From a virus (Duplodnaviria; Heunggongvirae; Uroviricota; Caudoviricetes), in the IMG/VR virus record IMGVR_UViG_2877251553_000001, positions 1-64,000 of that record: DNA of 64,000 nucleotides. One strand, written 5' to 3'. The notes under the pieces are model-generated. The model was not told where the DNA came from, searched no databases, and saw only the letters and a program-made list of their open reading frames with translations. Position numbers and translations under genes: made by a program. The first letter of the stretch is position 1, and every line of letters begins with the position of its first letter. Shown piece after piece: positions 1,369-48,687 of the stretch.

Positions 1369-1444
1369 GCCGATATAGCTCAGTTGGTAGAGCAGCGCAT
1401 TCGTAATGCGAAGGTCGTAGGTTCGACTCCTATTATCGGCACCA
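1369..1444 (+). tRNA. thrW: tRNA-Thr (anticodon CGU)
   Basis: 76-nt cloverleaf-compatible sequence GCCGATATAGCTCAGTTGGTAGAGCAGCGCATTCGTAATGCG...GGCACCA with anticodon loop CATTCGTAATG (CGT); 3' CCA encoded. Confidence 0.9.
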
Positions 1445-1458
1445 TTTAAATCAATAAG

Positions 1459-2622
1459 TTACACATCATTAGTACCTTCCTTATTTTTTGACTGGGACAA
1501 ATTTGGGACCGATGGGTTCAGGATCGAGTCTATTTGCCGTGCGTGTTCGGTAAGGTGATTAGGTGCAAGGTGAGCATATCGACGAACCATTTCGATAGAC
1601 TCCCAGCCTCCCATTTCCTGTAACACTGACAACGGGACTCCGGCTTGAACCAGCCAACTTGCCCAGGTGTGTCTCAAGTCGTGAAATCTGAAATCATCAA
1701 TACCTGCTCGTCTCAGCGCCGCTTTCCAGGCTGTGTTTGCGTCATACCGCATCTTCCTGACCGTTGGCGCTTTCGTTCCGTCTGGTTTGGTACAGCTTTC
1801 CTTGTAAACAAATACCCAACGGTGATGATTCCCGATTTGTTTTTTCAATACGCGACATGCAGTATCATTCAGCGCAACGCCAATTGCGCGGTTTGATTTA
1901 CTCTCTTCCGGGTTTATCCATGCCACCCGGCGCTGCATGTCTATTTGTTGCCATTCAAGGTTGATGATGTTCGAGCGTCTTAAGCCTGTTGCCAGTGCAA
2001 ATTCAACAACAGACTTTAATGGCTCCGGACATTCATCAATCAGCCTTTGTGCTTCATGAGGCTCCAGCCAGCGGATACGTTTATTCTTCGGTTGAGGCAC
2101 TTTAATAATTGGTGCCTTATCCAGCATTTTCCATTCACGCTCTGCGGCTCTTAGCAGGGCCTTTATAAATGAAAGATGCGTAGCCTTCGTTGCAACGGAC
2201 GCTGGTTTTGGCGTGTATTCTGGAACAGGTTTCCCTTTTTTTCTGCATGCTTCTGCCCTGAGTTTCCAGTTTTCCTCATGACGCCGGTTTGTCATTTTCT
2301 GCATCGCTGAATAAATTTTTGATTCAGTGATGTCTCTTAGTTGCATCCCTGCGAAATGTTGAAGCCAGAATCCGATCCGGCTTTTGTCATCGTCCAGTGA
2401 TTTTTTATGTGCTTTCTCTTCAAGCCACCTGACACACGCTTCCTCGAACGTTATATCAGGTATTTCACCAAGTTTGCTGACCCGCCATGCTTCAGCCTTT
2501 AGCTTGTCATGGAGTTCTGTCGCCTGCCTTTTGTCCTTTGTTCCAAGAGACTGTTTAAATCTTTTACCGTTCGGCAATGTGAAACTGGCGTACCATATTT
2601 CACCTCTGCGGAAGAGTGACAT
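1459..2622 (-). CDS. int: phage integrase (tyrosine recombinase)
   Basis: 387-aa ORF immediately downstream of the tRNA; C-terminal R...HxxR...Y catalytic region ([10 protein letters not shown]...VRRYAHL) typical of tyrosine recombinases. Confidence 0.9.
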
Positions 2623-2849
2623 TTTCTTTCCTCTGTTATGCCATCACCCGCGCTCACCTGGACAGTATGCAGCGGAGACTGAAGAGCCGCAATGCAGGCT
2701 TGTCGTGTTGTGAGGTAAGGAGATTTATTCTTAGTGGGATCTTTGCGTGTTGCCTGAAGACGCCCTGTGCGTATCCAGTTAATGGCAGTCGGTCTGGATA
2801 TCTTGAGAAAATGACAGGCCTCATCGAGTGTGAGGCTGTATGGCTCCAT
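2499..2849 (-). CDS. xis: putative excisionase (Xis-like DNA-binding protein)
   Basis: ORF beginning [26 protein letters not shown]... directly upstream of int and overlapping its start; start overlaps the upstream gene stop (TAATG). Exact 3' end uncertain. Confidence 0.45.
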
Positions 2850-3154
2850 TATTTCACCTCTTGCTGTGACATTGTTGAAAAATGGATACCAGCTCGTTGC
2901 TGCCAGACGATCCAACCGAGAGTCATATCCCATGCCATGTATTCGTTATCGCCGTTTTTTGCTCTCCGACGATCTACTAAGTCACCGAAACGCTTTTCCA
3001 TGAATAATTCATAAGCTTCGCGTTCATCTGGTTCTACTTCCAGAGATAGGAGTGCGATTTCATAAGCACGGCGCTCAATATCGTCTCGCACGTCAAGGCT
3101 GCTGATACGCTCTTTAATTTCTTTAATCAGTTCTTTGTCGGTAAAAGTGGTCAT
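2849..3154 (-). CDS. hypothetical prophage protein (YfdT-like, 101 aa)
   Basis: ORF in early-left operon; size and position match CPS-53 yfdT as recalled. Confidence 0.45.
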   Translation of the reverse strand: MTTFTDKELIKEIKERISSLDVRDDIERRAYEIALLSLEVEPDEREAYELFMEKRFGDLVDRRRAKNGDNEYMAWDMTLGWIVWQQRAGIHFSTMSQQEVK

Positions 3155-3516
3155 TATGCTCCAGCCTCCGGTGCTTTTGGCATTACTGCCCAGTGAGTGA
3201 TATTGACGTTTTCAAGGTCCCCGACCTGAAATGTCCACTGCCATTCTCCGGTTTCTTTTTGTCCCCAGGTGTACCAGAGAGAACGCCAGCCAATTAGCCA
3301 GCCTTCTCCGTTAGCATCGAATAACAAAACACTTTCATTTGCTGGTGGCAGTTCAGTTGACACTGGTATTACTTTGTTTTCCTGTGCTGCACATTTAGCT
3401 TCAAGCGCATCGAATTTACGCACCAGGTATTCAGCATCTGTTTCATTTACTTTCAGATCTCGCGGTACACATCTCCCACGAAGAAACCCTTCCATTTCGA
3501 AAACATTCATGCGCAT
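3154..3516 (-). CDS. hypothetical prophage protein (YfdS-like, 120 aa)
   Basis: ORF in early-left operon; size and position match CPS-53 yfdS as recalled. Confidence 0.5.
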   Translation of the reverse strand: MRMNVFEMEGFLRGRCVPRDLKVNETDAEYLVRKFDALEAKCAAQENKVIPVSTELPPANESVLLFDANGEGWLIGWRSLWYTWGQKETGEWQWTFQVGDLENVNITHWAVMPKAPEAGA

Positions 3517-4043
3517 TTGCGTAACTCCGATAACTCGTTAAAGCGTTCCATAAACATCCCGTAGGCATGGCCCGGTGCCAGTGGAATCACGTTGAACATC
3601 TCTGTTGCCGGGATACCTTCCAGTACAGGCCAGAAAGAGCCATCATCAAGCCCGAGATCGCGGCGTTCGGTTGCCAGCATGATGAGATCGGCATATTTCA
3701 CGGGCGTACTCATAACTGGGGGTAACCCGTATTTCTCACGGATTACGGCGTCTATTTTTTCTTCCATTTGTTTATAGTCAGGAAGAAGGCGTTTCAGTGG
3801 TGCGGGAATGTCCTGGCAATACGCTTCTGTTGCATCATGCATTAACGCTTCAAAAGCAAATTCCTGCGGCACCAGCTGGCTGCAAAGAACCGCATGTTGG
3901 GCGACGCTGTAGAAGTGCGAAAGATGACCGGCAAAGCGACAGATATTTGAAAGGGAAACCGCGATATCGTTAATATCGATGTCGTCTTTATTTATCCTGT
4001 CATAATAAAAATGCTTCCCGGAAAAAGTTTTAATAAATGACAT
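3507..4043 (-). CDS. yfdR: HD-domain phosphohydrolase (YfdR-like 5'-deoxynucleotidase)
   Basis: H...HD motif (LMHDATEAY) in a 178-aa product if started at MSFIKTF; ORF track gives a 15-codon longer N-terminus. Confidence 0.7.
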   Translation of the reverse strand: MSFIKTFSGKHFYYDRINKDDIDINDIAVSLSNICRFAGHLSHFYSVAQHAVLCSQLVPQEFAFEALMHDATEAYCQDIPAPLKRLLPDYKQMEEKIDAVIREKYGLPPVMSTPVKYADLIMLATERRDLGLDDGSFWPVLEGIPATEMFNVIPLAPGHAYGMFMERFNELSELRKCA

Positions 4044-4170
4044 TTTGTTCTCCACGTATATGCGCTGCACCGCGCTGAATTCTGGCAAAAAGAATCCCTC
4101 ACCATCCGGCGATTATTGAGTAAATTACGTTTCCATAAATGCCCCCGCAGGGGCATTTGCAGTAATGAAA

Positions 4171-4995
4171 TCAGGCGGTGAAAGTACCAATAAAGGTTTC
4201 TACTTTGCTGTCCTTGAATTTCTCAACAAGCAGATCACGAAATTCGTTAGCCATTTCTTCCTGCACCGCCTCCAGCTGAATAATGCGCAGAACCAGTACA
4301 GGACGATCGCCAGTGATAATACTGAGGCGTAATTTAAACGGACGTTCTTTCAGACCTTCAAACGGAACGCATTTAAATTCAAATGCCACTGGCATAATGT
4401 CTTTGGTCTTCGCTTCGACAGACTCCATCAGGGAGCGTTTGCCGCTGAAGTCATTATCTTCAAAATCAGCGGTCTGGTTTGCTTCAATCGTGATTTTACG
4501 GACAGCCGCAGCCGCTTTTGTTGCCTGAATAGCGTCACCATTAGCATCAAAGCCCACAAGATAGTCGGCCCAGTCTTCAATCCATTCTGCCAGTGACTTC
4601 TGGGAGTTACGCTCGCCGTTAACAGACAACAGAGCAGAGAACGGTGCTGTCTTTTTCAGTTTGAGTGTGGCGGTGTTATCTGCGTGACCTGGTTCATCAA
4701 TAGTACCCAGGTTAAGCACACTGACGGCACGCATATTATCAGCATCGATAAAGCAGCGGGTGCCTTCATCTGCAAGATCTTTAGAATAACGGGTAAAGTC
4801 ATCGATGCTGGCAGTGGAAAGCGCACCACGGAAACGGAAGCGATTTAAATTAAATTTTTCCAGATCATGAATGCGGAAATTCTCAGGCAATGCCACAGCA
4901 TCGGCACCAATCTTACTGATAATTTCATTAACACCCTGAGCAGAAATAAGGGCATGGATTTGATTAATTGCGGTTGCGTCTAAGTTCTGAGACAT
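4171..4995 (-). CDS. yfdQ: hypothetical prophage protein (YfdQ-like, 274 aa)
   Basis: 274-aa ORF in the same operon; length and neighbourhood match CPS-53 YfdQ as recalled. Confidence 0.55.
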
Positions 4996-5060
4996 AATAA
5001 GTCCTCACTATATAAAGATATTCAGTGATGAGATAAATAATCAGTTAATTAAAAACGATA

Positions 5061-5423
5061 TTAACGACCTGCTGCGCGGAGTTTTCCGTCAGGTTCACCG
5101 GCAAGAGTCAGTAACTGTCCCTGGTCTTCCTGCAGAATAGTCAGGCGACCACCGCGATTGACATACATCGGCGTTTCGGTGGTGTCTTCTTCGGAAATTT
5201 TCCCGCGGTTAGTCGGGCGAACATATGAGAGTTTGTGTTTGATTTTCACTCGGTTCTCATCAAACGGTTCGATTTCCAGGTTGAGCGAGACCTTACCTTT
5301 GGTTTTCGTGTTCATCACACCGGAAGCGACTTCACTGAGAACTGCGCCGATTTTGGTTTCAAATACGCCGCCGTCCAGCTCCCCGATAAATGCCTGCACA
5401 TCAGTACTGCGTTCGCTAGCCAT
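5061..5423 (-). CDS. hypothetical prophage protein (YfdP-like, 120 aa)
   Basis: Start chosen at MASERSTDV (GAGGA RBS upstream); the 197-aa ORF-track version has an implausible N-terminal extension. Confidence 0.5.
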   Translation of the reverse strand: MASERSTDVQAFIGELDGGVFETKIGAVLSEVASGVMNTKTKGKVSLNLEIEPFDENRVKIKHKLSYVRPTNRGKISEEDTTETPMYVNRGGRLTILQEDQGQLLTLAGEPDGKLRAAGR

Positions 5424-6057
5424 TTTGCTGCTCCTCATCATATCGACCCTGCAAGGTCGGTTGGTTTCTCCACAAAACAGAGAAGAACACCTGCGGTGAC
5501 TGCCGCCCGGATGGATTGGGTTATGAGCCCGTCGTCCGGTGATGCTCTTCTCTGTTTTGTAAAAAGAGCGGTACCAGCCGGAAGCAAGGGTACAAACTGG
5601 TACCGCCAAAGCAGTGGCTGTTGTGGTGGGGTTGTCACTCAGGCGTATGGTCAACCTGACAATCCGGTGTCCTCAACGGGGAAAGAGTAACCCCGCCATA
5701 CTTACCGCCGCGCCATTTCGCGGATTACCACAACGCTGAGAGCACTTAGCCAGTTACGGCACCACACTTTGTCGCGGCTCCATAAATGCCCTCATCGTTG
5801 CACCCTGGTCTCTTCCCAGGCGTCAAACCGAATCGCCACGCTGGTTAGGCGTCTTATCAGCATCATCATTGACTTGCACATTCCGGCTACCTGGTTTGTT
5901 TGCTCGAGCAAGGAGTGGATTGTCCCCTTTAACGTCACCAGACCGCTAACGACGCATGTGCCATACGCCGTGTTACAACCAAATTTTGTTTTAATCTTGC
6001 CTGTGTTATGTTTCTTTTAGATACATTATGTATCTCATGGGTACATTGTCAAGTATA

Positions 6058-6082
6058 AAAAAACCTGCCGAAGCAGGTTCAT
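6058..6082 (-). terminator. rho-independent terminator downstream of cI
   Basis: Minus-strand hairpin AACCTGCTTCGGCAGGTT followed by a T-run, just after the cI stop. Confidence 0.5.
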
Positions 6083-6091
6083 AAATATTGA

Positions 6092-6766
6092 TTAGGCCTT
6101 TATTGTGTATCTTCTTGGTTTTCCCGAGAAAATCACTGTACCAATTATAGAGCAATTACCGTTAATCTTAATGTAAGGCTCAGGCCAGTTTGGGTTTAAT
6201 GCTTTGAGATAACGCTGTGTTCCATCTTCTATCAATCGCTTGAAGGTGGTTTCGCCTGTATCGTGCATCAATGCAATAACGTCGTCACCGTGGCAGGCAG
6301 GGACTTCGGGATCAACAAAAATCATGTCTCCAGGGCGGTACTCATCAATCATTGAATCACCAATCACCCGCAAGATATAAGTCATTTCGCCACAGGGTAC
6401 AGGGCAGGGATACGTTTCTGCTGTGCTCAAATCAACCTCAGAATAGCCAACTTCTTTCCATGCTCCGGCCTGTACCCATGATATGACAGGGACTAACGTT
6501 ATTTGTTTGTTAGTGATTGAAACATCAGGTTTTTTTGTGATGTTCGTTGTCTGGTGTTCTTGATCAAGCCATCCGACAGGCAGGTCGAAACATTTTTCGA
6601 TGTGCCGTGCCATGCTGTCACCGATATTTTTAGTAGCGCCATCCCCCATAAACCTGCTGGTTTGGGTTGGCTCGCGATCAATCATGGTGGCAAAGGATGA
6701 ATTTCCGCCAACACCATCTCTCAGTTTTCTGGCGTTAGACCGCCGGATGTCATGGATTGTTTTCAT
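6092..6766 (-). CDS. cI: CI-like phage repressor (N-terminal HTH, C-terminal LexA/S24-type autopeptidase domain)
   Basis: 224-aa ORF divergent from cro; C-terminal region (VIGDSMIDEY...GDMIFVD) resembles S24 peptidase domain. Confidence 0.8.
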   Translation of the reverse strand: MKTIHDIRRSNARKLRDGVGGNSSFATMIDREPTQTSRFMGDGATKNIGDSMARHIEKCFDLPVGWLDQEHQTTNITKKPDVSITNKQITLVPVISWVQAGAWKEVGYSEVDLSTAETYPCPVPCGEMTYILRVIGDSMIDEYRPGDMIFVDPEVPACHGDDVIALMHDTGETTFKRLIEDGTQRYLKALNPNWPEPYIKINGNCSIIGTVIFSGKPRRYTIKA

Positions 6767-6785
6767 AACGAAATTAAAACCTTTG

Positions 6786-6853
6786 TACCGATAAGGTACA
6801 AGTATCTTGAAGGTTCATTTCAATCATGTAATATGTATACCGGAGGTACATAT
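6786..6853. promoter_or_regulatory. cI/cro divergent promoter region with two palindromic operator-like sites
   Basis: Perfect inverted repeat TTGTACC-GATAA-GGTACAA (6786-6804) and imperfect TGTATACC-GGA-GGTACATA (6835-6853) between cI and cro starts. Confidence 0.5.
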
Positions 6854-6856
6854 TGT

Positions 6857-7057
6857 ATGAAAGCGTATTGGGACTCTTTAACCAAAGAACAGCAGGGCGA
6901 GTTGGCCGGAAAAGTTGGCTCAACACCTGGCTACTTACGGCTGGTTTTCAATGGTTATAAAAAAGCCAGTTTTGTGCTGGCGAAAAAACTTGAGCAATGC
7001 ACGTCAGGTGCAATTACGAAATCTGACTTAAGACCGGATATCTATCCGAAAGATTAA
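6857..7057 (+). CDS. cro: Cro-like HTH regulator
   Basis: 66-aa ORF starting MKAYWDSLTKEQQGELAGKVG with GGAGG RBS, divergent from cI. Confidence 0.6.
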   Translation: MKAYWDSLTKEQQGELAGKVGSTPGYLRLVFNGYKKASFVLAKKLEQCTSGAITKSDLRPDIYPKD

Positions 7058-7088
7058 CAGAACACCTTCAATTTTTAACCACAGAACG

Positions 7089-7652
7089 ATGAGGCTAACC
7101 GTGGGTAAGTATCACTGGAAAGTAGAAAAACAGCCTGAGTGGTACGTGAAAGCTGTCAGAAAAACTATCGCAGCGTTGCCGGGTGGTTACGCTGAAGCAG
7201 CTGACTGGCTGGATGTAACAGAGAACGCATTATTTAACCGCCTTCGTGCCGATGGCGATCAGATTTTCCCGCTGGGATGGGCAATGGTTTTACAGCGCGC
7301 GGCTGGCACTCACTACATTGCGGATGCTGTCGCACAGTCTGCTGGTGGGGTGTTCGTATCGCTTCCTGAAATTGAGGAAGTAGAGAACGCCGATATAAAC
7401 CAGCGCCTGCTGGAAGTCATCGAACAGATCGGGAATTACTCAAAGCAGATTCGTTCGGCAATCGAAGATGGGGTCGTGGAGCCACACGAGCAGACAGCAA
7501 TTAATGATGAGTTGTATCTGTCAATTTCGAAGCTCCAAGAGCATGCAGCACTGGTCTACAAAATCTTTTGCGCTCCAGAAAAGAGTGACGCCCGCGAGTG
7601 TGCAGCTCCGGGCGTCGTGGCGTTTTGTGTCTGTGGAGAAACTAACGCATGA
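7089..7652 (+). CDS. hypothetical early regulatory protein (CII-like position)
   Basis: 187-aa ORF directly after cro; function not recognised. Confidence 0.35.
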   Translation: MRLTVGKYHWKVEKQPEWYVKAVRKTIAALPGGYAEAADWLDVTENALFNRLRADGDQIFPLGWAMVLQRAAGTHYIADAVAQSAGGVFVSLPEIEEVENADINQRLLEVIEQIGNYSKQIRSAIEDGVVEPHEQTAINDELYLSISKLQEHAALVYKIFCAPEKSDARECAAPGVVAFCVCGETNA

Positions 7653-8485
7653 ACAGTTTAACGGCAAATAACCGTTTGTCGCAACAGCTGGTGGTCAGCG
7701 TCGCTGAACACCTGTTGTTACGGCATGAATGCAGATTACCAAATCACCTGGCTGTAAGTAACCACAGAGAACTTTACCTGACTGTGGGGGGCGAGTTGTG
7801 CAGGAACTTAACCGCTGGTTTAGTGACGGAAGAGGACTTTATGTTCATGTTATTCGTTGGGAGCCAGAAACACAGCGCGTTATCTATCTTCGCAAAGACT
7901 ACCCGCATGAGTGCTTTAGTCCTTTGTGGAAATTCAGGCGTGATTTTATTGAGTGTGAAGGACCACCAGCACATTGATTCTGCCATTCCGGGACGTTACA
8001 CTGTTCAGGCACCTTATAAAGCGGGTGCCGGGATTGGCGTCCTGGAATTGATCAAGGCGATATATGACGCGCCAGCGTCTTTTTTATCGTCCGCATTTGC
8101 TCACATCAAAGTTATGGTGGGCTGGGCGGGGGCATCGAAAGATGCGCCGGTTTCCTTGATCACCGGTTACGCCAACCCCGTTCAGTTCACCACCAGCGAA
8201 ATTGGCGTTTCCGGTGGTGGAAGTATTTCACCGATCAAGGAGGCTGCCATCATGGCTACTGTCCCAGCCCTCACTCGTCTGAATGATGAAGACTTACATA
8301 AACTCAGTTATGTAACAACAGCACTACGTGCTCTGCGCAAGGTAACTCTTTCAGATCCGCAGGCGCATCAACTTCTGGTAGAAACCCTTCTTAACTTGCA
8401 GGCTGAACGTATTCGTTTGGCGGATAAGGCTAATCTTCATATTCACCGTCTCCTGAATATCAGCGGAGGGCATCGTCATGCTTAA
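7649..8485 (+). CDS. hypothetical prophage early protein
   Basis: 278-aa ORF overlapping previous stop (ATGA); shares a conserved core (AGAGIGVL...[16 protein letters not shown]) with the minus-strand ORF at 57805-58872. Confidence 0.5.
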   Translation: MNSLTANNRLSQQLVVSVAEHLLLRHECRLPNHLAVSNHRELYLTVGGELCRNLTAGLVTEEDFMFMLFVGSQKHSALSIFAKTTRMSALVLCGNSGVILLSVKDHQHIDSAIPGRYTVQAPYKAGAGIGVLELIKAIYDAPASFLSSAFAHIKVMVGWAGASKDAPVSLITGYANPVQFTTSEIGVSGGGSISPIKEAAIMATVPALTRLNDEDLHKLSYVTTALRALRKVTLSDPQAHQLLVETLLNLQAERIRLADKANLHIHRLLNISGGHRHA

Positions 8486-8714
8486 TCCGTTGATCCTCAA
8501 TATTCACCGTTTACTTCAGCGTAAAAAAATATCAATTCCTACAGTTGGGCAGTGGTACACCACACCTGCAGGGCATGTTCTACGTGTTAGCCTGGTTGAC
8601 CGTGAATGCCAGAAGGTGATTTGTGAACCGCTTGGCCGTAATTACCGCGTCAGTATGCCGCTTATAGCCTTTCGCTCCGGAAAAAACATGAAGCATCTCG
8701 GAGGTGCAGCATGA
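8478..8714 (+). CDS. hypothetical small protein
   Basis: 78-aa ORF with overlapping stop/start to neighbours. Confidence 0.35.
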   Translation: MLNPLILNIHRLLQRKKISIPTVGQWYTTPAGHVLRVSLVDRECQKVICEPLGRNYRVSMPLIAFRSGKNMKHLGGAA

Positions 8715-9528
8715 GTATGGAGCTGATGGTTAAAGCGATGAAAATTCGAGTGGGTAATCCATTGCGAAAACTGGTTCTGATCAAGCTGGCTGATAATGCC
8801 AGCGATCAGGGTGAGTGCTGGCCCAGCTACCAGCATATTGCTGACCAGTGCGAGATTAGCAAACGTTCTGTGATGAATCATATTGCGGCCCTTTGTGAGT
8901 CCGGGCTGGTAAAAAAAGTCACCCGGAAAGGTGAAAAAGGTAACTCAAGTAATATCTATCTCCTTCATCTTGATGGTGCAGGAGATTCACTAGGGGGTAG
9001 TGCAAATAATTCACTATCTGGTGCAGCAAATTCACCAGGTAGTGCAGGAGTTGCACCAGGGGGTAGTGCAGGAGATTCACCCAGAACCAGTCACTCTTTT
9101 GAACCAGTCAAAGAACCAGTCAATGAACCAATAGCTGTTGGTGCATCAGTTGATGAGTCCGTGCGAGTTCGTTCAAACCGACCGGAATACTCTCCGGAGT
9201 TTGAGCAGGCATGGCTGGTATATCCCAAACGTGCTGGTGGCAATTCAAAATCTGCAGCCTTCAAAGCCTGGAAAGCCCGTTTGAATGAGGGGGTAAACCC
9301 GAAACCATGCTGGAAGGTGTGAAACGCTACGCGGGCTGGGTATCTGCGATGGGTAACAGCGGCACACAATTTGTGAAACAGGCTGTCACGTTCTTTGGTC
9401 CGGATCGTCATTTCGAAGAATCCTGGGAAGTTCCTGCGGTATCTGCAGCCAGACGCGAGGACCCGTACTTCAAAGCCAGTTACGACAACGTGGACTACAG
9501 CCAGATCCCGGCAGGATTCAGGGGGTGA
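8711..9528 (+). CDS. replication initiation protein (O-like, N-terminal HTH); reading frame broken by a -1 shift at a G5 run near 9286-9290
   Basis: N-terminus resembles phage replication-protein HTH domain; contains iteron-like repeats; two ORF-track pieces (8711-9322, 9307-9528) merge if one G is restored. Confidence 0.55.
8985..9090 (+). repeat. iteron-like direct repeats inside the replication gene (putative origin)
   Basis: Repeated GGTAGTGCAGGAGATTCAC / GGTGCAGCAAATTCACC-type units encoding GGSA..S repeats. Confidence 0.45.
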
Positions 9529-9530
9529 TC

Positions 9531-10025
9531 ATGAGTCTTTTGAATGAAGTTCAGAAATACATTGAAGCCCATCCGGGGTGTACTTCCGGAGACATTGCGG
9601 ATGCTTTTGCAGGTTACTCACGGCAGCGCGTTCTGCAGTCAGCAAGCAAGTTACGTCAGAGTGGGCGTGTGGCTCACCGTTGTGAAGGGGATACACGCAG
9701 ACATTTCCCGCGCCAGACAAAGATATCGCAGGAGGCGGAACCGCAACCAGTTCGTGAAACCAGACCTGTGCGCAATTTCTATGTCGGCACTAACGATCCC
9801 CGGGTGATTTTGTGCCTGACCCGCCAGGCGGAAGAACTGGAGTCGAGGGGCTTATACCGTCGTGCTGCAACCGTGTGGATGGCGGCATTCCGTGAAAGCC
9901 ACTCCCAGCCAGAGCGAAACAATTTTCTTGCGCGTCGTGAGCGGTGTTTACGGAAAAGCAGCAAGCGCGCTGTACCGGGTGATGAGTGGTATCTGTCAGG
10001 GAATTACGTGGGGCTTAATGAGTAA
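9531..10025 (+). CDS. hypothetical protein
   Basis: 165-aa ORF (MSLLNEVQKYIEAHPG...); stop overlaps next start (ATGAGTAA). Confidence 0.45.
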   Translation: MSLLNEVQKYIEAHPGCTSGDIADAFAGYSRQRVLQSASKLRQSGRVAHRCEGDTRRHFPRQTKISQEAEPQPVRETRPVRNFYVGTNDPRVILCLTRQAEELESRGLYRRAATVWMAAFRESHSQPERNNFLARRERCLRKSSKRAVPGDEWYLSGNYVGLNE

Positions 10026-10671
10026 TAAATATTGCCAGGCGCTGGTCGAACTGCGGAACAAACCAGCCCATGAACTGAAGGAAGTGGGCGATCAGTGGCG
10101 CACGCCGGATAACATTTTCTGGGGAATTAACACCCTGTTTGGCCCGTTTGTTCTGGATCTGTTCACTGACGGTGATAACGCCAAATGTGCCGCGTATTAC
10201 ACGGCGGAAGACAACGCGCTGGCGCATGACTGGTCAGAACGTCTTGCGGAGCTTAAAGGTGCTGCCTTTGGTAATCCCCCATACAGCCGCGCCAGTCAGC
10301 ATGAGGGGCAATACATCACCGGCATGCGTTACATCATGAAACATGCCAGTGCTATGCGTGATAAAGGCGGGCGCTATGTTTTCCTGATCAAAGCTGCCAC
10401 CAGCGAAGTGTGGTGGCCGGAAGATGCAGACCATATTGCTTTTATTCGCGGGCGTATTGGTTTTGAACTGCCTGCCTGGTTTATCCCGAAAGACGAGAAG
10501 CAGGTGCCGACAGGTGCTTTCTTCGCTGGTGCTATTGCTGTTTTCGATAAGACCTGGAAGGGACCGGCAATCAGCTACATCGGGCGCGATGAACTTGAGG
10601 CATGTGGTGAGGCGTTTCTGGCGCAGGTTCGCCAGCAGGCAGAACGGCTGGTCAGGGAGATAGTGGCATGA
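10018..10671 (+). CDS. phage N6-adenine DNA methyltransferase (Dam-like, NPPY motif)
   Basis: 217-aa product from MSNKYCQAL; motif GNPPYSR; resembles phage Dam family. Confidence 0.7.
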   Translation: MSNKYCQALVELRNKPAHELKEVGDQWRTPDNIFWGINTLFGPFVLDLFTDGDNAKCAAYYTAEDNALAHDWSERLAELKGAAFGNPPYSRASQHEGQYITGMRYIMKHASAMRDKGGRYVFLIKAATSEVWWPEDADHIAFIRGRIGFELPAWFIPKDEKQVPTGAFFAGAIAVFDKTWKGPAISYIGRDELEACGEAFLAQVRQQAERLVREIVA

Positions 10672-32311: not shown

Positions 32312-32316
32312 ATCCC

Positions 32317-33665: not shown

Positions 33666-37063
<3,398 letters not shown>

Positions 37064-37129
37064 ATTTTATAACCCAGAACGGGCGCCAGAAATGACGCCT
37101 TTTTTATTGCAGAAAAGCGAGAGGTAATT

Positions 37130-37726
37130 ATGCGTAAAGTTTGTGCAGCAATTTTGTCCGCAGCCATTTGTCTGGCCGTATCCGGTGCGCCTGCATGGGC
37201 GTCTGAACATCAGTCCACGCTGAGCGCGGGTATCTTCATGCCTCGACGAACGTCCCCGGCAGTGATGATCTGAACGGGATTAACATGAAATACCGTTATG
37301 AGTTTACGGACACACTGGGGCTGGTGACGTCATTCAGCTATGCAGGAGACAAGAATCGCCAGCTGACCCGTTACAGCGATACCCGCTGGCATGAAGATTC
37401 CGTTCGTAACCGCTGGTTCAGCGTAATGGCGGGCCGTCTGTGCGCGTGAATGAATGGTTCAGCGCGTATGCGATGGCGGGTGTAGCTTACAGCCGTGTGT
37501 CGACTTTCTCCGGGGATTATCTTCGCGTAACTGACAACAAGGGGAAAAAGCACGATGTGCTGACCGGAAGTGATGACGGTCGCCACAGCAACACGTCTCT
37601 GGCGTGGGGGCTGGCGTGCAGTTTAACCCGACCGAATCCGTGTCCATTGATATTGCTTATGAAGGCTCCGGCAGTGGTGACTGGCGCACTGACGGTTTCA
37701 TCGTGGGTGTCGGTTATAAATTCTGA
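37130..37726 (+). CDS. lom: outer membrane protein Lom; reading frame interrupted several times
   Basis: N-terminus MRKVCAAILSAAICLAVSGAPAWASEHQSTLSAG and internal segments match remembered lambda Lom; several single-base gaps in homopolymers break the frame. Confidence 0.7.
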
Positions 37727-37751
37727 TTAGCCAGGTAACACAGTGTTATGA

Positions 37752-37780
37752 CAGCCCGCCGGTTCAGGCGGGCTTTTTTG
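37752..37780 (+). terminator. rho-independent terminator after lom
   Basis: CAGCCCGCC-GGTTCA-GGCGGGCT followed by TTTTTT. Confidence 0.6.
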
Positions 37781-37789
37781 TGGGTGAAT

Positions 37790-40700
37790 ATGGCAGTAAA
37801 GATTTCAGGTGTACTGAAAGACGGCACAGGAAAACCGGTACAGAACTGCACAATCCAGCTGAAAGCAAAACGTAACAGCACCACGGTGGTGGTGAACACG
37901 CTGGCCTCAGAAAATCCGGATGAAGCCGGGCGTTACAGCATGGACGTTGAGTACGGGCAGTACAGCGTTATTCTGTTGGTGGAGGGATTCCCGCCGTCAC
38001 ATGCCGGGACCATCACCGTGTATGAAGATTCCCGACCCGGTACGCTGAATGATTTTCTCGGTGCCATGACGGAGGATGATGCCCGTCCTGAGGCACTGCG
38101 CCGTTTTGAACTGATGGTGGAAGAGGTGGCGCGTAACGCGTCCGCGGTGGCACAGAACACGGCAGCCGCGAAGAAGTCAGCCAGTGATGCCAGCACATCA
38201 GCCCGTGAGGCGGCAACCCATGCGACTGATGCTGCAGGCTCAGCACGCGCAGCCAGCACATCAGCCGGGCAGGCCGCGACGTCGGCTCAGTCAGCGTCTT
38301 CCAGCGCAGGAACGGCATCAACAAAGGCCACTGAAGCCTCAAAAAGTGCTGCCGCTGCAGAGTCCTCAAAAAGCGCGGCAGCTACCAGTGCCGGTGCGGC
38401 GAAAACGTCAGAAACGAATGCGGCAGCGTCACAAAAATCTGCAGCCACTTCTGCATCCGCAGCGACCACAAAGGCGTCAGAAGCTGCCACCTCAGCCCGG
38501 GATGCGGCGGCCTCAAAAGAGGCAGCGAAATCATCAGAAACGAACGCATCATCAAGCGCCAGTAGTGCCGCTTCCTCGGCAACGGCGGCAGGAAATTCCG
38601 CGAAGGCGGCAAAAACGTCCGAGACGAACGCCAGGTCTTCTGAAACGGCAGCGGGACAGAGTGCCTCAGCTGCGGCAGGCTCAAAAACAGCGGCTGCATC
38701 ATCTGCCAGTGCCGCATCAACAAGTGCCGGGCAGGCCTCAGCCAGTGCCACCGCTGCCGGAAAGTCGGCAGAAAGTGCCGCATCGTCTGCTTCAACAGCC
38801 ACAACGAAGGCTGGCGAAGCCACTGAACAGGCCAGCGCAGCAGCGAGGTCAGCTTCCGCAGCGAAGACATCCGAAACGAACGCGAAAGCGTCGGAAACCC
38901 GTGCAGAATCCTCAAAAACGGCTGCCGCATCGTCAGCCAGTTCGGCGGCGTCATCGGCATCATCGGCGTCTGCTTCAAAAGATGAGGCGACCAGACAGGC
39001 GTCAGCAGCGAAGGGCAGCGCCACGACAGCATCCACGAAGGCGACAGAGGCAGCTGGCAGTGCGACGGCGGCAGCACAGAGCAAAAGTACGGCGGAATCC
39101 GCGGCAACGCGCGCTGAGACAGCGGCAAAACGTGCAGAGGATATTGCATCCGCCGTGGCGCTTGAGGATGCGAGCACGACGAAAAAGGGGGTAGTACAGC
39201 TCAGCAGTGCGACCAACAGCACGTCTGAAACGCTGGCGGCAACGCCAAAGGCAGTAAAAGCAGCCTATGACAATGCAGAGAAACGTCTGCAGAAAGACCA
39301 GAACGGTGCTGATATTCCCGACAAGGACCGCTTCCTGAGTAACATTAATGTTTACAGCAAAGGTGAAGTGGATCAGAAAAAGGGGATGCGATACGTTGTG
39401 GTAAATGCCCCGGCGGGTGTCCAGGAAGGTAAATATTATCCGTTAGTGATAAAAAGGAATGACAGCCATCGAGCATCCCGCGTTGTCATTTCAACGCCAA
39501 GGCGCACAGCTAATCACAGAATGAATAACTGTGAGTTTAATGGTTTTGTTTGCACAGGCGGCTGGACGGACCGGGGTAGCTATGCCTGTGGTATGTTCTG
39601 GGCTTATTCATCATCGGAACGCGCTATTCATTCCATTCTGATGAGTAATAAAGGCGATACCGTAGACAGCGTATTCTATATAGAAGGTGGGGCATTTCCC
39701 GTAGAGGTTTTTTTAGAAGAAGGACTCTCCGTTACTGCACCTGCTTCTGATTATGTTGTTGCTGAAACAACTTATAAATTTGGTGCAACTGATCCTTATT
39801 CTGAATCAGTTGCTGTAAATTTAATTTTAGATTTTAAACAAGGTAATGGATTTTATAGTTCGTATCCTGTTTTGAGTAAGTCAGATATTAGCGGGAATAA
39901 GATTTACGCTAATGATGAAGTTATTGTCCGTAGTCAGAACGCGTTAAGGATGATTGCAGGCGATTACGGTGTCATATGGCGAAATGATGGAGCAAATACT
40001 TACTTGCTCATGACTGATAAAGGCGACCAGTACGGTGGCTGGAACGGTCTTCGACCATTTGCTGTAAATAACGCAACAGGTGAAGTGACGATCAATACAC
40101 CACTTAATTCGCCTAAGGGATTAAGGGAAATTCTGATACAGCTACGAAACTTCAGACAGCAATAAAAATATCTGGTGTTTCGTTTGATGGTTCTACTGAT
40201 ATCACTTTAACCGCTGCGCATGTTGCTGCTTTTGCCAGAAGAGCAACGGATACGTATGCCGATGCGGATGGGGCGTTCCCTGGAATGCCGAATCAGGCGC
40301 TTATAATGTCACCCGCTCTGGCGACAGCTATATTCTGGTTAACTTCTATACCGGAGTCGGAAGTTGCCGGACCTTGCAGATGAAGGCGCATTACAGAAAT
40401 GGTGGTCTGTTCTACCGTTCTTCAAGAGACGGTTATGGTTTTGAGGAAGACTGGGCAGAAGTTTATACCTCGAAAAATCTTCCACCAGAAAGCTACCCAG
40501 TCGGCGCACCAATCCCGTGGCCATCAGATACCGTTCCGTCTGGTTATGCCCTGATGCAGGGGCAGACTTTTGACAAATCTGCTTACCCGAAACTTGCAGC
40601 TGCTTATCCGTCAGGCGTGATCCCTGATATGCGTGGCTGGATGATTAAGGGCAAGCCCGCCAGTGGTCGAGCCATATTGTCTCAGGAACAGGACGGCATT

Positions 40701-40988
40701 AAATCGCACACCCACAGCGCCAGCGCATCCAGTACGGATTTGGGTACGAAAACCACATCGTCGTTTGATTACGGCACTAAATCCACGAATAACACCGGGG
40801 CGCATACCCATAGTGTTAGCGGTACGGCTGCTTCAGCCGGTGCACATACCCATTCGATGACATTTGTTTCAGGTGGTTCCAGTGGTGCTCCGGGAAGTGG
40901 ATCACCTGATTATTCTAAATACAGTGTTAACACTTCTTCTGCAGGCGCTCATACGCACTCTGTATCGGGTACTGCTGCAAGCGCAGGT
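37790..40988 (+). pseudogene. stf: side tail fibre (Stf-like), 5' portion; interrupted by IS2 and by frameshifts near 40165 and 40270
   Basis: Ala/Ser/Thr-rich repeats then GAHTHS-type repeats; ORF pieces 37790-40165 and 40374-40991 plus read-through frames. Confidence 0.75.
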
Positions 40989-42317
40989 TAGACTGGCCCC
41001 TGAATCTCCAGACAACCAGTATCACTTAAATAAGTGATAGTCTTAATACTAGTTTTTAGACTAGTCATTGGAGTACAGATGATTGATGTCTTAGGGCCGG
41101 AGAAACGCAGACGGCGTACCACACAGGAAAAGATCGCAATTGTTCAGCAGAGCTTTGAACCGGGGATGACGGTCTCCCTAGTTGCCCGGCAACATGGTGT
41201 AGCAGCCAGCCAGTTATTTCTCTGGCGTAAGCAATACCAGGAAGGAAGTCTTACTGCTGTGGCCGCCGGAGAACAGGTTGTTCCTGCCTCTGAACTTGCT
41301 GCCGCCATGAAGCAGATTAAAGAACTCCAGCGCCTGCTCGGCAAGAAAACGATGGAAAATGAACTCCTCAAAGAAGCCGTTGAATATGGACGGGCAAAAA
41401 AGTGGATAGCGCACGCGCCCTTATTGCCCGGGGATGGGAGTAAGCTTAGTCAGCCGTTGTCTCCGGATGTCGCGTGCGCAGTTGCACGTCATTCTCAGAC
41501 GAACCGATGACTGGATGGATGGCCGCCGCAGTCGTCACACTGATGATACGGATGTGCTTCTCCGTATACACCATGTTATCGGAGAGCTGCCCACGTATGG
41601 TTATCGTCGGGTATGGGCGCTGCTTCGCAGACAGGCAGAACTTGATGGTATGCCTGCGATCAATGCCAAACGTGTTTACCGGATCATGCGCCAGAATGCG
41701 CTGTTGCTTGAGCGAAAACCTGCTGTACCGCCATCGAAACGGGCACATACAGGCAGAGTGGCCGTGAAAGAAAGCAATCAGCGATGGTGCTCTGACGGGT
41801 TCGAGTTCTGCTGTGATAACGGAGAGAGACTGCGTGTCACGTTCGCGCTGGACTGCTGTGATCGTGAGGCACTGCACTGGGCGGTGACTACCGGCGGCTT
41901 CAACAGTGAAACAGTACAGGACGTCATGCTGGGAGCGGTGGAACGCCGCTTCGGCAACGATCTTCCGTCGTCTCCAGTGGAGTGGCTGACGGATAATGGT
42001 TCATGCTACCGGGCTAATGAAACACGCCAGTTCGCCCGGATGTTGGGACTTGAACCGAAGAACACGGCGGTGCGGAGTCCGGAGAGTAACGGAATAGCAG
42101 AGAGCTTCGTGAAAACGATAAAGCGTGACTACATCAGTATCATGCCCAAACCAGACGGGTTAACGGCAGCAAAGAACCTTGCAGAGGCGTTCGAGCATTA
42201 TAACGAATGGCATCCGCATAGTGCGCTGGGTTATCGCTCGCCACGGGAATATCTGCGGCAGCGGGCTTGTAATGGGTTAAGTGATAACAGATGTCTGGAA
42301 ATATAGGGGCAAATCCA
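40989..42317 (+). mobile_element. IS2 insertion sequence (1329 bp here) with 5-bp target duplication CAGGT
   Basis: Ends TAGACTGGCCCC... and ...GGGGCAAATCCA; CAGGT at 40984-40988 and 42318-42322. Confidence 0.9.
41079..42306 (+). CDS. insCD: IS2 transposase InsC/InsD (orfA/orfB)
   Basis: [26 protein letters not shown]... (InsC) and DDE transposase InsD recognised from memory; one missing G in a G-run near 41430 removes the InsC stop. Confidence 0.85.
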
Positions 42318-42469
42318 CAGGTGCACACGCACATACTGTCGGTATTGGTGCTCATACGCACTCCGTTGCGATTGGTTCACATGGACATACCATCACCGTT
42401 AACGCTGCTGGTAACGCGGAAAACACCGTCAAAAACATCGCATTTAACTATATTGTGAGGCTTGCATAA
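42318..42469 (+). pseudogene. stf: side tail fibre 3' remnant
   Basis: ...[50 protein letters not shown] continues the GAHTHS repeats after IS2. Confidence 0.7.
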
Positions 42470-43051
42470 TGGCATTCAGAATGAGTGAACAACCACGGAC
42501 CATAAAAATTTATAATCTGCTGGCCGGAACTAATGAATTTATTGGTGAAGGTGACGCATATATTCCGCCTCATACAGGTCTGCCAGCAAACAGTACCGAT
42601 ATTGCACCGCCAGATATTCCGGCAGGCTTCGTGGCTGTTTTCAACAGTGATGAGGCATCGTGGCATCTCGTTGAAGATCATCGGGGTAAAACGGTTTATG
42701 ACGTGGCTTCCGGCGACGCGTTATTTATTTCTGAACTCGGTCCGTTACCGGAAAATGCCACTTGGTTATCCCGGAAGGGAGTTTCAGAAGTGGAACGGCA
42801 CAGCCTGGGTGAAAGATGCAGAAGCAGAAAAACTGTTCCGGATCCGGGAGGCGGAAGAAACAAAAAACAGCCTGATGCAGGTAGCCAGTGAGCATATTGC
42901 GCCACTTCAGGATGCTGTAGATCTGGAAATCGCAACGGAGGAAGAAACCTCATTGCTGGAAGCCTGGAAAAAGTATCGGGTGTTGCTGAACCGTGTTGAT
43001 ACATCAACTGCACCGGATATTGAGTGGCCAGAAGAACCAGACACCGTGTAA
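42469..43051 (+). CDS. tfa: tail fibre assembly protein Tfa; -1 net frameshift near 42770-42790
   Basis: N-terminus [31 protein letters not shown]... and C-terminus ...[24 protein letters not shown] match remembered lambda Tfa. Confidence 0.8.
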
Positions 43052-43059
43052 GCAAAAAA

Positions 43060-43101
43060 GAAAAACCGCAGACACGACGTATGCATGACGTGCTGCGGTT
43101 T
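43060..43101. terminator. long hairpin between convergent tfa and the GIY-YIG gene; also copy 1 of a ~30-nt repeated motif
   Basis: AAACCGCAG...CTGCGGTTT inverted repeat enclosing ACACGACGTATGCATGACGTG. Confidence 0.45.
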
Positions 43102-43112
43102 ATGCTTATCAC

Positions 43113-43936
<824 letters not shown>

Positions 43937-44297
43937 TCATTGCAAGGGCTCACAACCAGTAGTGTTGAGAAAACCATCGGAGAAATGAGGCTAAGCCTTT
44001 GAATTTACATAGTACAAAAAAGATACTTTTCCTCATAATGTGAGCTAATTTTATGTTTCGTTTGATGATTGGACCGGTCTCGAAAACCGTAGACACATAG
44101 TATGCGTTAATTTATGAACAAACTACTTGTCTGCTGTTTTTCTGTCATTAGTCGTATATAGAATGATTCTCTATGCCTAACAAAGCATCACCAGTGCTAG
44201 ATTACGTTGTAGTCACTGTTTAAATATCCAGATAAAACATTTCCTTCTGGGTTGAATGAGTGATAAAGTTTCACCCATTAGACCCCTTGGAGGAATT

Positions 44298-45730
44298 ATG
44301 TCTGAATTTGAAGTGTTGGCACAGCATCTGCTGAAGGAAGCCGAGGCGGAAGAAAAGCTGCGACAGGAAAATGATAAAAAGCTTATCGAGAAAGTGCTGG
44401 AAATCTATGATCAGAAGTATGTGGCTGAATTACTGAGAAAAGTCGGAAAAAATGAGTGGAGCCGTGAAACCATTAACCGCTGGATTAATGGCAAGTGTTT
44501 ACCAAAATCGTTGACTTCAGTAGAAGAGTCTCTTCTGCGTAAGATGCTACCAGAACCACCTGCAAACCATCCGGAATATGCTTTCCGCTTCATTGACTTA
44601 TTTGCTGGAATTGGAGGGATACGGAAAGGTTTTGAGGCCATTGGAGGCCAGTGTGTTTTTACCAGTGAATGGAATAAAGATGCTGTGCGTACATACAAGG
44701 CCAACTGGTTTAACGATGAACAGGTGCATAAATTCAATCTCGATATTCGGGAAGTCACGCTGAGTGATAAAACCGATGTATTGGAAACGGATGCTTATGC
44801 ATATATTGATGAGCATGTGCCGGATCATGATGTGCTTCTTGCGGGGTTCCCGTGCCAGCCATTTAGCCTTGCTGGTGTTAGTAAGAAAAACTCACTTGGT
44901 CGTGCGCATGGTTTTGAATGTGAAGCACAAGGAACACTTTTTTTTGACGTGGCACGTATTATACGAGCAAAAAAACCGGCAATTTTTGTGCTGGAAAATG
45001 TCAAAAATCTGAAGAGCCATGATAAGGGTAAAACTTTCAAAGTCATTATGGAGACCCTTGACGAGCTGGGCTACGAAGTTGCCGATGCTGCAGAAATGGG
45101 AAAAAACGATCCAAAGATTATCGATGGGAAGCATTTTTTGCCTCAGCATCGTGAACGCATTGTTCTGGTCGGATTTAGACGAGATCTGAATATTCACAAG
45201 GGGTTTACCTTGCGTGATATCAGTCGTTTTTATCCGGAACACCGCCCATCATTTGGTGAATTGCTGGAGCCTGTAGTCGACAGTAAATATATACTTACGC
45301 CAAAACTATGGGAGTACCTTTATAACTACGCCAAAAAGCATGCAGCCAAGGGGAATGGTTTTGGCTTTGGGTTGGTCAATCCTGAGAATAAGGAAAGCAT
45401 TGCACGCACACTTTCTGCCAGATATCACAAAGACGGATCAGAAATTCTTATTGATCGTGGTTGGGATATGGCAACGGGAGAGGCTGACTTTATGAATGAG
45501 AGTAATCAGGCTCGTCGACCACGCAGGCTGACTCCCGAGAGTGCGCACGCCTTATGGGATTTGAAAAACCTGGAGGGAAACCATTCCGTATTCCGGTTTC
45601 AGATACTCAGTCATATCGGCAGTTCGGTAACTCAGTTGTGGTGCCAGTATTTGAAGCTGTTGCCAGACTTCTGGAACCCTATATCCTCAAAGCTGTTTCT
45701 GCTGATGCTGGTAAGACTGGGCAGCCTTGA
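44298..45730 (+). CDS. DNA cytosine-5 methyltransferase (Dcm / M.EcoRII-like, CCWGG-type); -1 frameshift at a C-run near 45533
   Basis: Strong resemblance to remembered E. coli Dcm ([14 protein letters not shown]...GFPCQPFS...ENVKNL...[15 protein letters not shown]); restoring one C gives a Dcm-like C-terminus. Confidence 0.85.
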
Positions 45731-45764
45731 GAACATCTCCCGGCCTTTTAAGCCGGGAGTCAGC

Positions 45765-46979
45765 CTATGATAGTTCAGCGTAAAGCTCTATCAGCTCAGT
45801 AATGAATGCTCCGAGCGTTATTAATTCTTCTCTAACTGCTTCTGGGTATTTTTTATGTAAAGTTGATGGTACAACGAGTCTGACACCCGCATCTTTCATT
45901 TCTCGGTATTGTGCTGAAGAAACACCTTCTTGCAGTGTAAATAAATGTACCTGATGGATTTTATCTGCTTCATTCAGTATCTGACGCCAGCGATCTTTGC
46001 AGGTGGTCTTTACTGCCAGCATACGTAAGTTTTCTACAGGAAATTCAACGTTATGATATGCCTCTGCTGAAGGAAACAGGAAATCTGGTTTTTTATTACC
46101 TTCAGTAACTGCCTGAGTGGAGAAATGCCGTAGTCCGTGCTCGATAAAAAGCTTCTCTAGGTGAAGTTCAAGTGATTTGCCTGCCCTTGATTTACGTCGA
46201 TTACTGACAGAGTTGGCTAATGCAATAAACTCATCTACAGAATCGAATCCTTTCTTAATAATATCAAGAACATGTAATTCCTCGACGAGTAGAAAAATAT
46301 CATACTCGACACGCCGACGGTCAATCAGTTGCTCATCTGGATCCTTGGAGTTTTTAGCATAATGGCCAGCAGCATATTGAATAATTTCGTTTCCAGAAGG
46401 AAAACGCTTCTTCCAGTCTTCAGGAATAACATATTTATGATTTACTGGAGTTTGCTGAAGAGACAATCCGCCCAAAATTTGTCCGGCAGGGCCGGAAATT
46501 AGGGTTCCAGGTATGATTTCGCCAATAGCAGACTCGATGATATCCTCTTCATCGGGATTGACGCAGACCCATATATCTACCTCGGAACAGTCAGTGTTCT
46601 GTTCGTTTAACCTGAAAGCAAGAATTGTGAGGGCTCCTGTATTTTCAGGGTTCTGTAATGGACTTCCTCTCCCCCAGCGCGTAATTCTTTTTTCGTTTCG
46701 GGTCTTACCAAAATAACGGTTGTTGTAATAAATTGCGCGTGCTTGGGTATCAGGGCAATCATGGGATGATACATGCGCAGTAAGGAAGACTGAAGGGTTC
46801 AGTTCGCGAGTATGATTGATAGATGGAAAAAGCTTTTCAACGATATTTGAGGGGATATAAAGTCCGACCTGATGGCCACCTGTTGCGCCTGTGTCGTTTG
46901 CAGAAAGGCGTTTGATGTAGATAAAGTAATTCCCGCTTGCGATATCAAGCAGCCAGTTATGAAAAACCGACATATACAT
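45765..46979 (-). CDS. type II restriction endonuclease, EcoRII-like (CCWGG)
   Basis: 404-aa ORF convergent with the Dcm-like gene; N-terminus (M)[25 protein letters not shown] matches remembered R.EcoRII. Confidence 0.8.
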
Positions 46980-47572
46980 CCCTTTGTTAACATACAGTCA
47001 GGGTTAACATTTTTCCATAGTTATAGATAAGCGGCTAGGAACTTAAGGGAAAAACAAAAAGCCCGCATAAGCGGGCTTTTGTGTCACTCGAGAGCCGCGG
47101 CTCCTTTGCGTATCCTTTTTTGTCTCCTCACCGTCTGGTCGGTGTCCTGCTGAGACTGCTAACTTCCTGTTTTTGTTGGTGTTGCCCTTACACCGTCCAA
47201 TCATGATTGGTGGAGCTGGCGGGAGTTGAAACCGTAGCCACGTCGTATGCAAGAACGTGCTACGACTGGCTGGTGAACTTCCGATAGTGCGAGTATTGAA
47301 TGATTTCCAACTGTTATCGATTTTGCGTATTTTTTGCATGAGAGGATTTTTACCTCCTCCCACCGATCCTCCATGGCTTTACGCCAGTGTCTCTAGGACT
47401 GCTATGTGCCAAAAGCAGAACTTGCTTACATTGTGCTATGTTAATTTGTTGGGAGCAGGTCACAAAGTCCAGCCAGGACGAAAATAAATAATTGCCATAC
47501 ATTTAGTGTTGATTATTTCGGGATTGTTCATCTATTCTGATTGTATCAGCGAGCAGGCCGGAGTCACTCTTC

Positions 47573-47797
47573 GTGGAACATCCCATACTTCAGAAAACAA
47601 TCGTTCTCTTTATTCTTGCCCTATGGGTAATTGATCCATTCAGGACAAAGAGAAGAAAGCATACTGAATCCACCATTGAAGAAGCCGATGCCAGAGAACG
47701 TCATAAATGGCGATATCTCAGATGGGGAGTACGAACAATACAAATTGCAGCGACAGTATATATGTTTGCTATGCTGATTCAGTTTTTACTGAAGTAG
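47573..47797 (+). CDS. hypothetical small membrane protein
   Basis: 74-aa ORF with two hydrophobic segments in an otherwise unassigned region; weak. Confidence 0.25.
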   Translation: MEHPILQKTIVLFILALWVIDPFRTKRRKHTESTIEEADARERHKWRYLRWGVRTIQIAATVYMFAMLIQFLLK

Positions 47798-48641
47798 ACG
47801 GCTCAGGCAGGTACGACCGGACGGAATTGGCAGCCAATTCAGCGGAGGCCGGACGGGGTTAAACGTCCCCTCTGTGCCAGTGACCTGCTCCCCGTTGATT
47901 CACACGGAAGACTGTTAGAAATGTGCAATTTTTGCTCACAGCAGACTTTAAGAGTTGATTGTGTGTTGCACTGTGAGATCAAATCAAAACCAATATATTC
48001 AGGCATCTTCCCACAGCGCCCCCATTCAACAGGCAATTGCTCCTTATCAAATCCCTCAAACCAGTAAACACTACTTTTTGCCCAACAATAGGCACTTCTC
48101 CCCAACCCTAATGAAACAATGCGCGACTCCAGTCCGGCTTGAGACGACCATGCCGTTTAAGGCGCACACCATTACAAGCAGTTGCTCATATTGAGGGAAA
48201 GTTAATAAAGAAACTTAACGGCATTTCCTCTTTTGCGCACGTTTCAATTGCCTTGATATCCAGTCTTGGTTACGTTTGCGAATTTTTTGTTTCATTGGCT
48301 ACTGTTCTGATTCGACTCACTTATTAATCAATGATCTTACTGTATTCCAACGCCATGCTTTGTACAGGAATGTCCGCTTTTCGCTCATAACAGACATTAA
48401 CTACAGTTATGGTAGAAGGTATGCATGCTGGGTGGGGAAAGTATGAAGGAAAAGAAGACTGCTGCGCCGTTTGTCGTCACATTTATCTTCATTGGCTATG
48501 CAAGTCGTAATACAAGGTGGGACAAAACTGAGACACATAAGGCCTCGCAATGACTTGCAAGGCTTTACATGTTTTGATGTGGTGGGACGTGTGAGCGCAG
48601 TGTTGATGGGGTAATGCTTTGAATTAGAAGCGGATTCTTAT

Positions 48642-48687
48642 AATTCGTAATGCGAAGGTCGTAGGTTCGACTCCTATTATCGGCACC
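48642..48687 (+). repeat. 46-bp direct repeat of the thrW 3' end (prophage attR / island attL core)
   Basis: Identical to 1399-1444 (ATTCGTAATGCGAAGGTCGTAGGTTCGACTCCTATTATCGGCACCA). Confidence 0.85.

Follow-up and report, generated by a model that had tools for sequence, protein, structure and literature searches.

The stretch of DNA analysed here (64,000 nt, positions 1 to 64,000 of the IMG/VR virus record IMGVR_UViG_2877251553_000001, Caudoviricetes; hereafter the window, with coordinates counted from its first letter) carries the threonine transfer RNA (tRNA) gene thrW, followed by a lambdoid prophage, which we call prophage A, and by a genomic island with a P4-family integrase. The DNA belongs to NCBI record CP026825.1, whose source is probably a Shigella. 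Comparison with close relatives makes it very probable that thrW holds a layered array of independently acquired integrative elements, in which the island arrived first and prophage A last. The features of the array are collected in Table 1.

ARAGORN found only one tRNA in the window, an intact tRNA-Thr(CGT) corresponding to thrW, which begins 115 bp after the proA open reading frame (ORF). The 46 nt at its 3' end have an exact second copy far downstream, and the identity runs on for two further bases (TT), giving an exact 48-bp direct repeat (1399-1446 and 48643-48690). Exact 48-mer pairs have a chance expectation of about 2.6e-20 in 64 kb, and the window has no other direct repeat of 40 bp or more. 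The tRNA-derived part of the repeat, ATTCGTAATGCGAAGGTCGTAGGTTCGACTCCTATTATCGGCACCA, is present exactly at both ends of the prophage (1399-1444 and 48643-48688) and matches letter for letter the published 46-bp attachment (att) core of phages SfI, SfII, SfV and SfX, which integrate at thrW adjoining proA (PMC3636060). A first-pass annotation of this DNA had already reported the 46-bp copy of the tRNA end, correctly except that its coordinates (48642-48687) were one base off, and its description of an intact tRNA-Thr followed by a prophage int also stands, the int ORF beginning 12 bp past the first repeat copy. No third direct att copy was found in the window, either as an exact match of at least 16 bp or over 20-30 bp with mismatches.

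The integration functions of prophage A are those of an SfV-type phage. Int and Xis are almost identical to their SfV counterparts (Table 1), and a DNA match to SfV of ~15 kb at 97% runs from position 1447 to about 16300, with no extension to the right end of the prophage. When the prophage ends were circularised (48518-48690 joined to 1447-1800), they aligned unbroken, at 97.3%, to SfV 20467-20993, which is the gtrA-int intergenic (attP) region. The late genes are unlike those of SfV: positions 25001-43000 are 97% identical to lambda-like siphoviruses (mEp460, PhiR55_1), and the tail-gene Pfam families in the source record are Phage_tail_T, Tape_meas_lam_C, Phage_tail_L, Lambda_tail_I, GpJ and Ail_Lom. 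The lambda-type module order is kept (int/xis, S24 repressor, replication/nin, Q, lysis, terminase, portal, head, tail Z-J), and the element is colinear with annotated prophages at 94-99%, the annotated prophage of E. coli 6409 being colinear as well. Since Int, Xis, attP and core are SfV-like and the late genes lambda/mEp460-like, the element between the repeats is, judged by its gene content, a mosaic lambdoid prophage carrying an SfV integration module, in line with the earlier description of a lambdoid prophage that uses thrW.

Past the second repeat copy, after 164 bp, begins the ORF of a 404-aa integrase with Arm-DNA-bind_3 (PF13356), Phage_int_M (PF22022) and Phage_integrase (PF00589) domains. 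This protein is unrelated to the Int of prophage A, and direct comparison with P4 placed it in the family of P4 Int (Table 1). The island to which it belongs is found intact in E. coli CP53, where it spans 17.1 kb directly at thrW and has a 19-bp direct repeat, TCCTATTATCGGCACCATT, at both ends; past it come a truncated LysR-family pseudogene and then paoD. The att cores of the two integrases overlap but differ (46-48 bp for the phage, 19 bp for the island), so that the earlier claim of one shared core holds for the overlap and not in the strict sense.

Each of the two elements also occurs without the other. Scoring 5,426 complete E. coli genomes by what abuts thrW, we found an SfV-type int next to the tRNA gene in 960 genomes, the island integrase directly next to an intact thrW in 709, and the tandem junction (phage arm, att, island int) in 159. 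The same tandem is present in E. coli 6409, and in E. coli CX07 the phage attR abuts a ykfI-yafW-type gene block instead of the island. In five sibling genomes, which lack the prophage, proA-thrW is followed directly by a gene for the identical island integrase. With prophage A removed in silico (1-1446 joined to 48691-56070), the window gave a single high-scoring segment pair with each of these five siblings, at 99.86-99.91% identity and with 1-5 substitutions in 8.8 kb; the alignment spans the junction and the same insertions of the IS110 and IS66 families of insertion sequences (IS).

As the siblings hold the same IS-damaged island without a prophage, the island was already damaged in a prophage-free lineage. 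It probably predates prophage A, unless the siblings lost the prophage by precise excision, and the comparison favours a subsequent insertion, of 47,244 bp, next to the tRNA gene. Such an entry point agrees with laboratory double lysogens, in which SfI takes the tRNA side of a resident SfX by entering at its attL (PMC3306764). The first-pass annotation had proposed sequential integration with the island as the older element, and had named as refutation that the two are never found separately; the island-only siblings and the genomes with a single element at thrW speak for the proposal.

A third layer, missed in that annotation, lies at the far end of the window (63111-63608). It consists of int'_B, the IS3-truncated remainder of a second SfV-type integrase gene, and of a degenerate att, att*. 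The int'_B region forms a 98% inverted repeat with 1442-1930, and its 167-aa product is identical in at least 24 contigs. The att* site, which we found through synteny with CP53, is probably the distal att copy of the island, a 19-bp repeat in CP53 that in the window is inverted and lacks 5 bp. At this site the right end of the island, which is inverted, meets what we call prophage B on its int side, and the att* sequence is also present in siblings L010 and L011. Together, att* and the second truncated int indicate that the thrW locus has seen at least three integrations. In E. coli CP131_Sichuan the undisturbed arrangement is found: thrW is followed by the island, the island by an 18-bp att, and this att by a prophage with an SfV-type int, so that phages of this type can occupy either flank of the island. 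One sibling, which matches the final 7 kb of the window at 99.9% identity, continues past the window end with island right-end genes, IS66 and another lambdoid nin/Q region. The array is therefore longer than 62 kb, and the earlier figure of a ~62-kb composite island falls away, the array running past base 64000 and its size not being fixable from the window.

We propose the following history for the locus. An island with a P4-family integrase would first have taken thrW through its 19-bp core at the 3' end of the tRNA gene. At some stage prophage B, with an SfV-type int, would have occupied the distal att of the island, its IS3-truncated int being the only remnant, and IS110, IS66 and IS3 elements would then have broken up and partly inverted the island. 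Most recently, the attP of the 47.2-kb prophage A, which holds a 46-bp copy of the 3' part of thrW, would have recombined with the intact tRNA gene, presumably through catalysis by its Int and with a crossover within the last ~19 bp of the core. The phage copy would thereby complete the tRNA gene at attL in functional form, and the 3' part displaced from the chromosomal gene would become the 48-bp partial copy that stands before the island integrase.

Several points weigh against this history. The presence and absence of prophage A among the siblings would fit a gain here or a precise excision there alike, and entry of the island into the attR of a resident prophage would leave the same final sequence. 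The IS3::int' junction is identical in siblings L012 and L013, but lies there beside an intact thrW; prophage B may be older than the island, or the island may later have been excised in those strains. With att* inverted and 5 bp short, prophage B may have come before or after the island.

The alternative that survives best is that the common ancestor carried prophage A and that the siblings lost it by precise Int/Xis excision, which would make the siblings uninformative on the order of arrival. Scar-free excision is plausible, as Int, Xis and both 48-bp att copies are intact, and the few substitutions between window and siblings make the polymorphism recent either way. However, the prophage is absent from all five independent siblings among the matches listed, E. 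coli genomes in which the island integrase directly adjoins thrW outnumber those with the tandem 4.5 to 1, the island is far more decayed than prophage A, and the incoming phage of the laboratory double lysogens took the tRNA side. We therefore consider an ancestral prophage unlikely and the direction of change to be probably a gain. Much less probable still is that a prophage was there first and the island integrated into the partial tRNA copy at its attR. Secondary att copies do appear to be usable, the SfV-int prophage of CP131_Sichuan sitting at the island's 18-bp distal att, but the siblings have the island with identical IS insertions at an intact tRNA gene and no prophage, and this order of events would need IS damage followed by prophage loss in every sibling. 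Finally, a single composite mobile unit, or a 48-bp copy created by an assembly that does have systematic 1-bp errors in G/C runs, is hardly credible, because each element stands alone in hundreds of genomes, the tandem junction recurs in 159 independent complete genomes, and the errors seen are homopolymer indels and not rearrangements.

Table 1. Features of the thrW array in the window (coordinates in nt; aa, amino acids)
Feature	Position	Strand	Remarks
proA (glutamate-5-semialdehyde dehydrogenase), conserved left flank	1..1254	+	417-aa ORF; 99.8% identical to E. coli regions annotated proA
thrW, tRNA-Thr(CGT)	1369..1444	+	ARAGORN; same sequence as the E. coli CP53 gene; last 46 nt make up the phage-type att core, restored at attL
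attL of prophage A, first 48-bp repeat copy	1399..1446	+	first 46 bp are the published SfI/SfII/SfV/SfX core (PMC3636060)
Prophage A, 47.2-kb lambdoid mosaic	1447..48642		SfV-like int/xis/early region; lambda/mEp460-like head, tail and lysis genes
int of prophage A, SfV-type tyrosine recombinase	1459..2622	-	387 aa, full length; 381/387 identical to SfV Int (98%); PF00589
xis of prophage A	2499..2933	-	142/144 identical to SfV Xis (99%); HTH_17
IS3-family insertion sequence, side-tail-fibre region of prophage A	41034..42317	+	left boundary approximate; HTH_Tnp_1 and rve/rve_3 ORFs
Cargo next to attP arm	43113..46979		GIY-YIG-like ORF, methylase and convergent endonuclease (next three rows)
GIY-YIG-like ORF	43113..43763	-	
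Dcm/M.EcoRII-like methylase	44256..45770	+	NF007772, 810 bits
EcoRII-type endonuclease	45765..46979	-	EcoRII-N and EcoRII-C
Phage-derived left arm of attP	48370..48642	+	conserved beside the att copy in other thrW prophages; matches in other genomes begin about 48370-48381
Middle att: attR of prophage A and left end of island	48643..48690	+	second 48-bp copy, partial tRNA
Island integrase, P4 family	48854..50068	+	404 aa; 42% identical to P4 Int over 405 aa (full length), E 3e-115; NF007246
Island left part	50132..51821	+	DUF6387 gene (split by G/C-run indels), AlpA/Vis-type regulator 51286-51483, hypothetical gene truncated by IS110
IS block in island	51900..57101		IS110 family 51900-53074; IS66 family about 53340-55875; IS3 family 55849-57101
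Inverted island segment	57097..59997	-	Ash 57805-58872 and AntA 59041-59874; PF10554, PF08346; inverted IS3 copies on both sides; 99.0% identical to CP53 island 25902-23003, reversed
More IS3-family copies and fragments	59982..63110		
int'_B, 3' 472 bp of second SfV-type integrase gene	63111..63582	+	IS3-truncated; inverted relative to int of prophage A; integrase C-terminal domain
att*, third degenerate att	63595..63608	-	TCCTATTATC^CATT; 19-bp island core without GGCAC (5 bp)
Island right end, inverted, runs off window	63609..64000	-	99.75% identical to CP53 island 37538-37137

The older element of the array, the island, was called P4-type in the first-pass annotation, a label that fits its integrase and not the island as a whole. 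Searches with P4 proteins (tblastn) matched int, vis/alpA and the cI/Ash region in the window, and the alpha primase also in intact relatives; no primase is left in the island of the window, and sid, delta, psu and epsilon were found neither there nor in three intact relatives. P4-like satellites have been defined by seven components (int, psu, delta, sid, alpA, epsilon, alpha), of which at most two may be missing (PMC8628076). With fewer than five of the seven recovered by these searches, we rejected the identification of the island as a P4-like satellite; on its gene content it is an IS-damaged fossil with a P4-family integrase. Its portion inside the window showed no virulence genes. The arms of the inverted IS pairs lie at 56196-57033/60051-60888 and 57027-57101/59982-60056, and the inverted IS3 copies around the Ash/AntA segment (56196-57101 and 59982-60888) have the form of a footprint of IS-mediated inversion.

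Sibling sequences show the distal part of the array in other configurations. In L011 (10922-20504) the inverted island right end is followed by IS66 and then by a second lambdoid nin-region set (PerC, Dam, LexA-like, RusA, KilA-N, DUF968 and Q), which may be the remains of the older prophage B. In UYIT01000003.1 (L010, L015) the left part of the island lies at thrW, at about 1.92 Mb, and the block of int', att* and island right end at about 2.10-2.12 Mb, a separation of roughly 190 kb; from strain to strain, the array has been split in different ways by large IS-driven rearrangements. In CP53, the flank after the distal att (L007 37548-37580), AAAATCAAAGAGTTAC, is alike at 13 of 16 positions to the left end of the SfV-type prophage (window 1447-1470), TAAATCAATAAGTTAC. 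This likeness may be a trace of a still older phage, or of the native attB flank.

Within prophage A, the cargo genes next to the attP arm fill the slot that holds gtrABV in the SfV map. No gtrA-gtrB-gtr(type) or oac genes were found beside attP, where the GIY-YIG-like ORF and the genes of an EcoRII-type restriction-modification (R-M) system stand instead. Related prophages have other contents in the same slot: gtrABV in SfV, GmrSD in L016, a BCCT transporter with DUF2254 in L022-L024, and large hypothetical genes in the prophages of E. coli 6409 and CX07. The slot next to attP thus looks like a variable cargo and defence position. Elsewhere in the prophage, two ORFs of 160 and 273 aa (13265-14593, minus strand), which have the genes for the Q antiterminator and a DNA methyltransferase as neighbours, matched no Pfam family significantly and had no equivalent in the prophages compared; they are probably morons of unknown function. 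L013 has an IS copy with 99.4% identity to most of the IS3-family element in the side-tail-fibre region (41108-42317).

Three late genes of prophage A, those for terminase, portal and J, are split at 1-bp deletions in G runs. Deletions of the same kind occur outside the prophage at about one per kb when the window is compared with sibling genomes. Against close relatives, indels were located at 18416, 19795, 22137, 24310, 25380, 26696, 34986, 50145, 50471, 50522, 50871, 52197, 54523 and 55724; nearly all are 1-bp deletions, mostly in G or C runs of 4-5 bases, and the DUF6387, IS110 and IS66 ORFs are split in the same way as the three phage genes. Because these deletions occur inside and outside the prophage alike, and because one sibling record is a PacBio assembly (PMC10132075), the split ORFs are probably homopolymer errors of the assembly rather than real pseudogenes. 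For the same reason we did not accept that prophage A is defective. In practical terms, its apparent pseudogenes should probably be read as sequencing errors.

The locus can be set beside several known systems. With SfV, SfI, SfII and SfX, prophage A shares the integration module, including the identical core, the colinear attP, the thrW site next to proA and an int at the tRNA-proximal end; it differs in lacking the gtrABC O-antigen genes and, from SfV, in virion genes of the lambda/mEp460-like siphovirus type. In the thrW double lysogens of SfI and SfX (Sun et al. 2011, PMC3306764) two elements likewise stand head to tail, separated by an att copy, and the one on the tRNA side came later. 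There both partners are phages of one integrase family, whereas here prophage A is paired with a decayed island whose P4-family integrase is unrelated and whose core is shorter, and the remnant of a third layer is present. To P4 and P4-like satellites the island is linked by its integrase, by AlpA/Vis and Ash/cI-region homologues, by the alpha-type primase of its intact relatives and by integration at a tRNA 3' end through a core of ~19 bp, as seen in CP53; unlike them, it and its three intact relatives have no sid, delta, psu or epsilon, its target is thrW, and the copy in the window is primase-less and IS-scrambled. Other E. coli islands associated with thrW, PAI III536 and the tsh/vat island of avian pathogenic E. 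coli (APEC), occupy the same hotspot with different cargo (PMC7545054).

Tandem integration at this locus is thus real but ordinary, of a kind already documented at a known integration hotspot (PMC7545054). Its significance lies mainly in annotation: prophage A has its correct boundaries at 1447-48642, the adjoining island is a fossil, and an EcoRII-type R-M system stands where relatives of the prophage have O-antigen-modifying genes. The locus also offers a clear worked example of element stacking at thrW, for which close relatives supply the state before insertion. Beyond this, there is about an even chance that the island's distal att remnant (18-19 bp, with no other tRNA sequence) is a working secondary attB for SfV-type integrases. 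If so, the SfV-type crossover would fall within the last ~19 bp of the 46-bp core, and every resident island would add a docking site, such that thrW would grow into a layered array whose order records the history of arrival.

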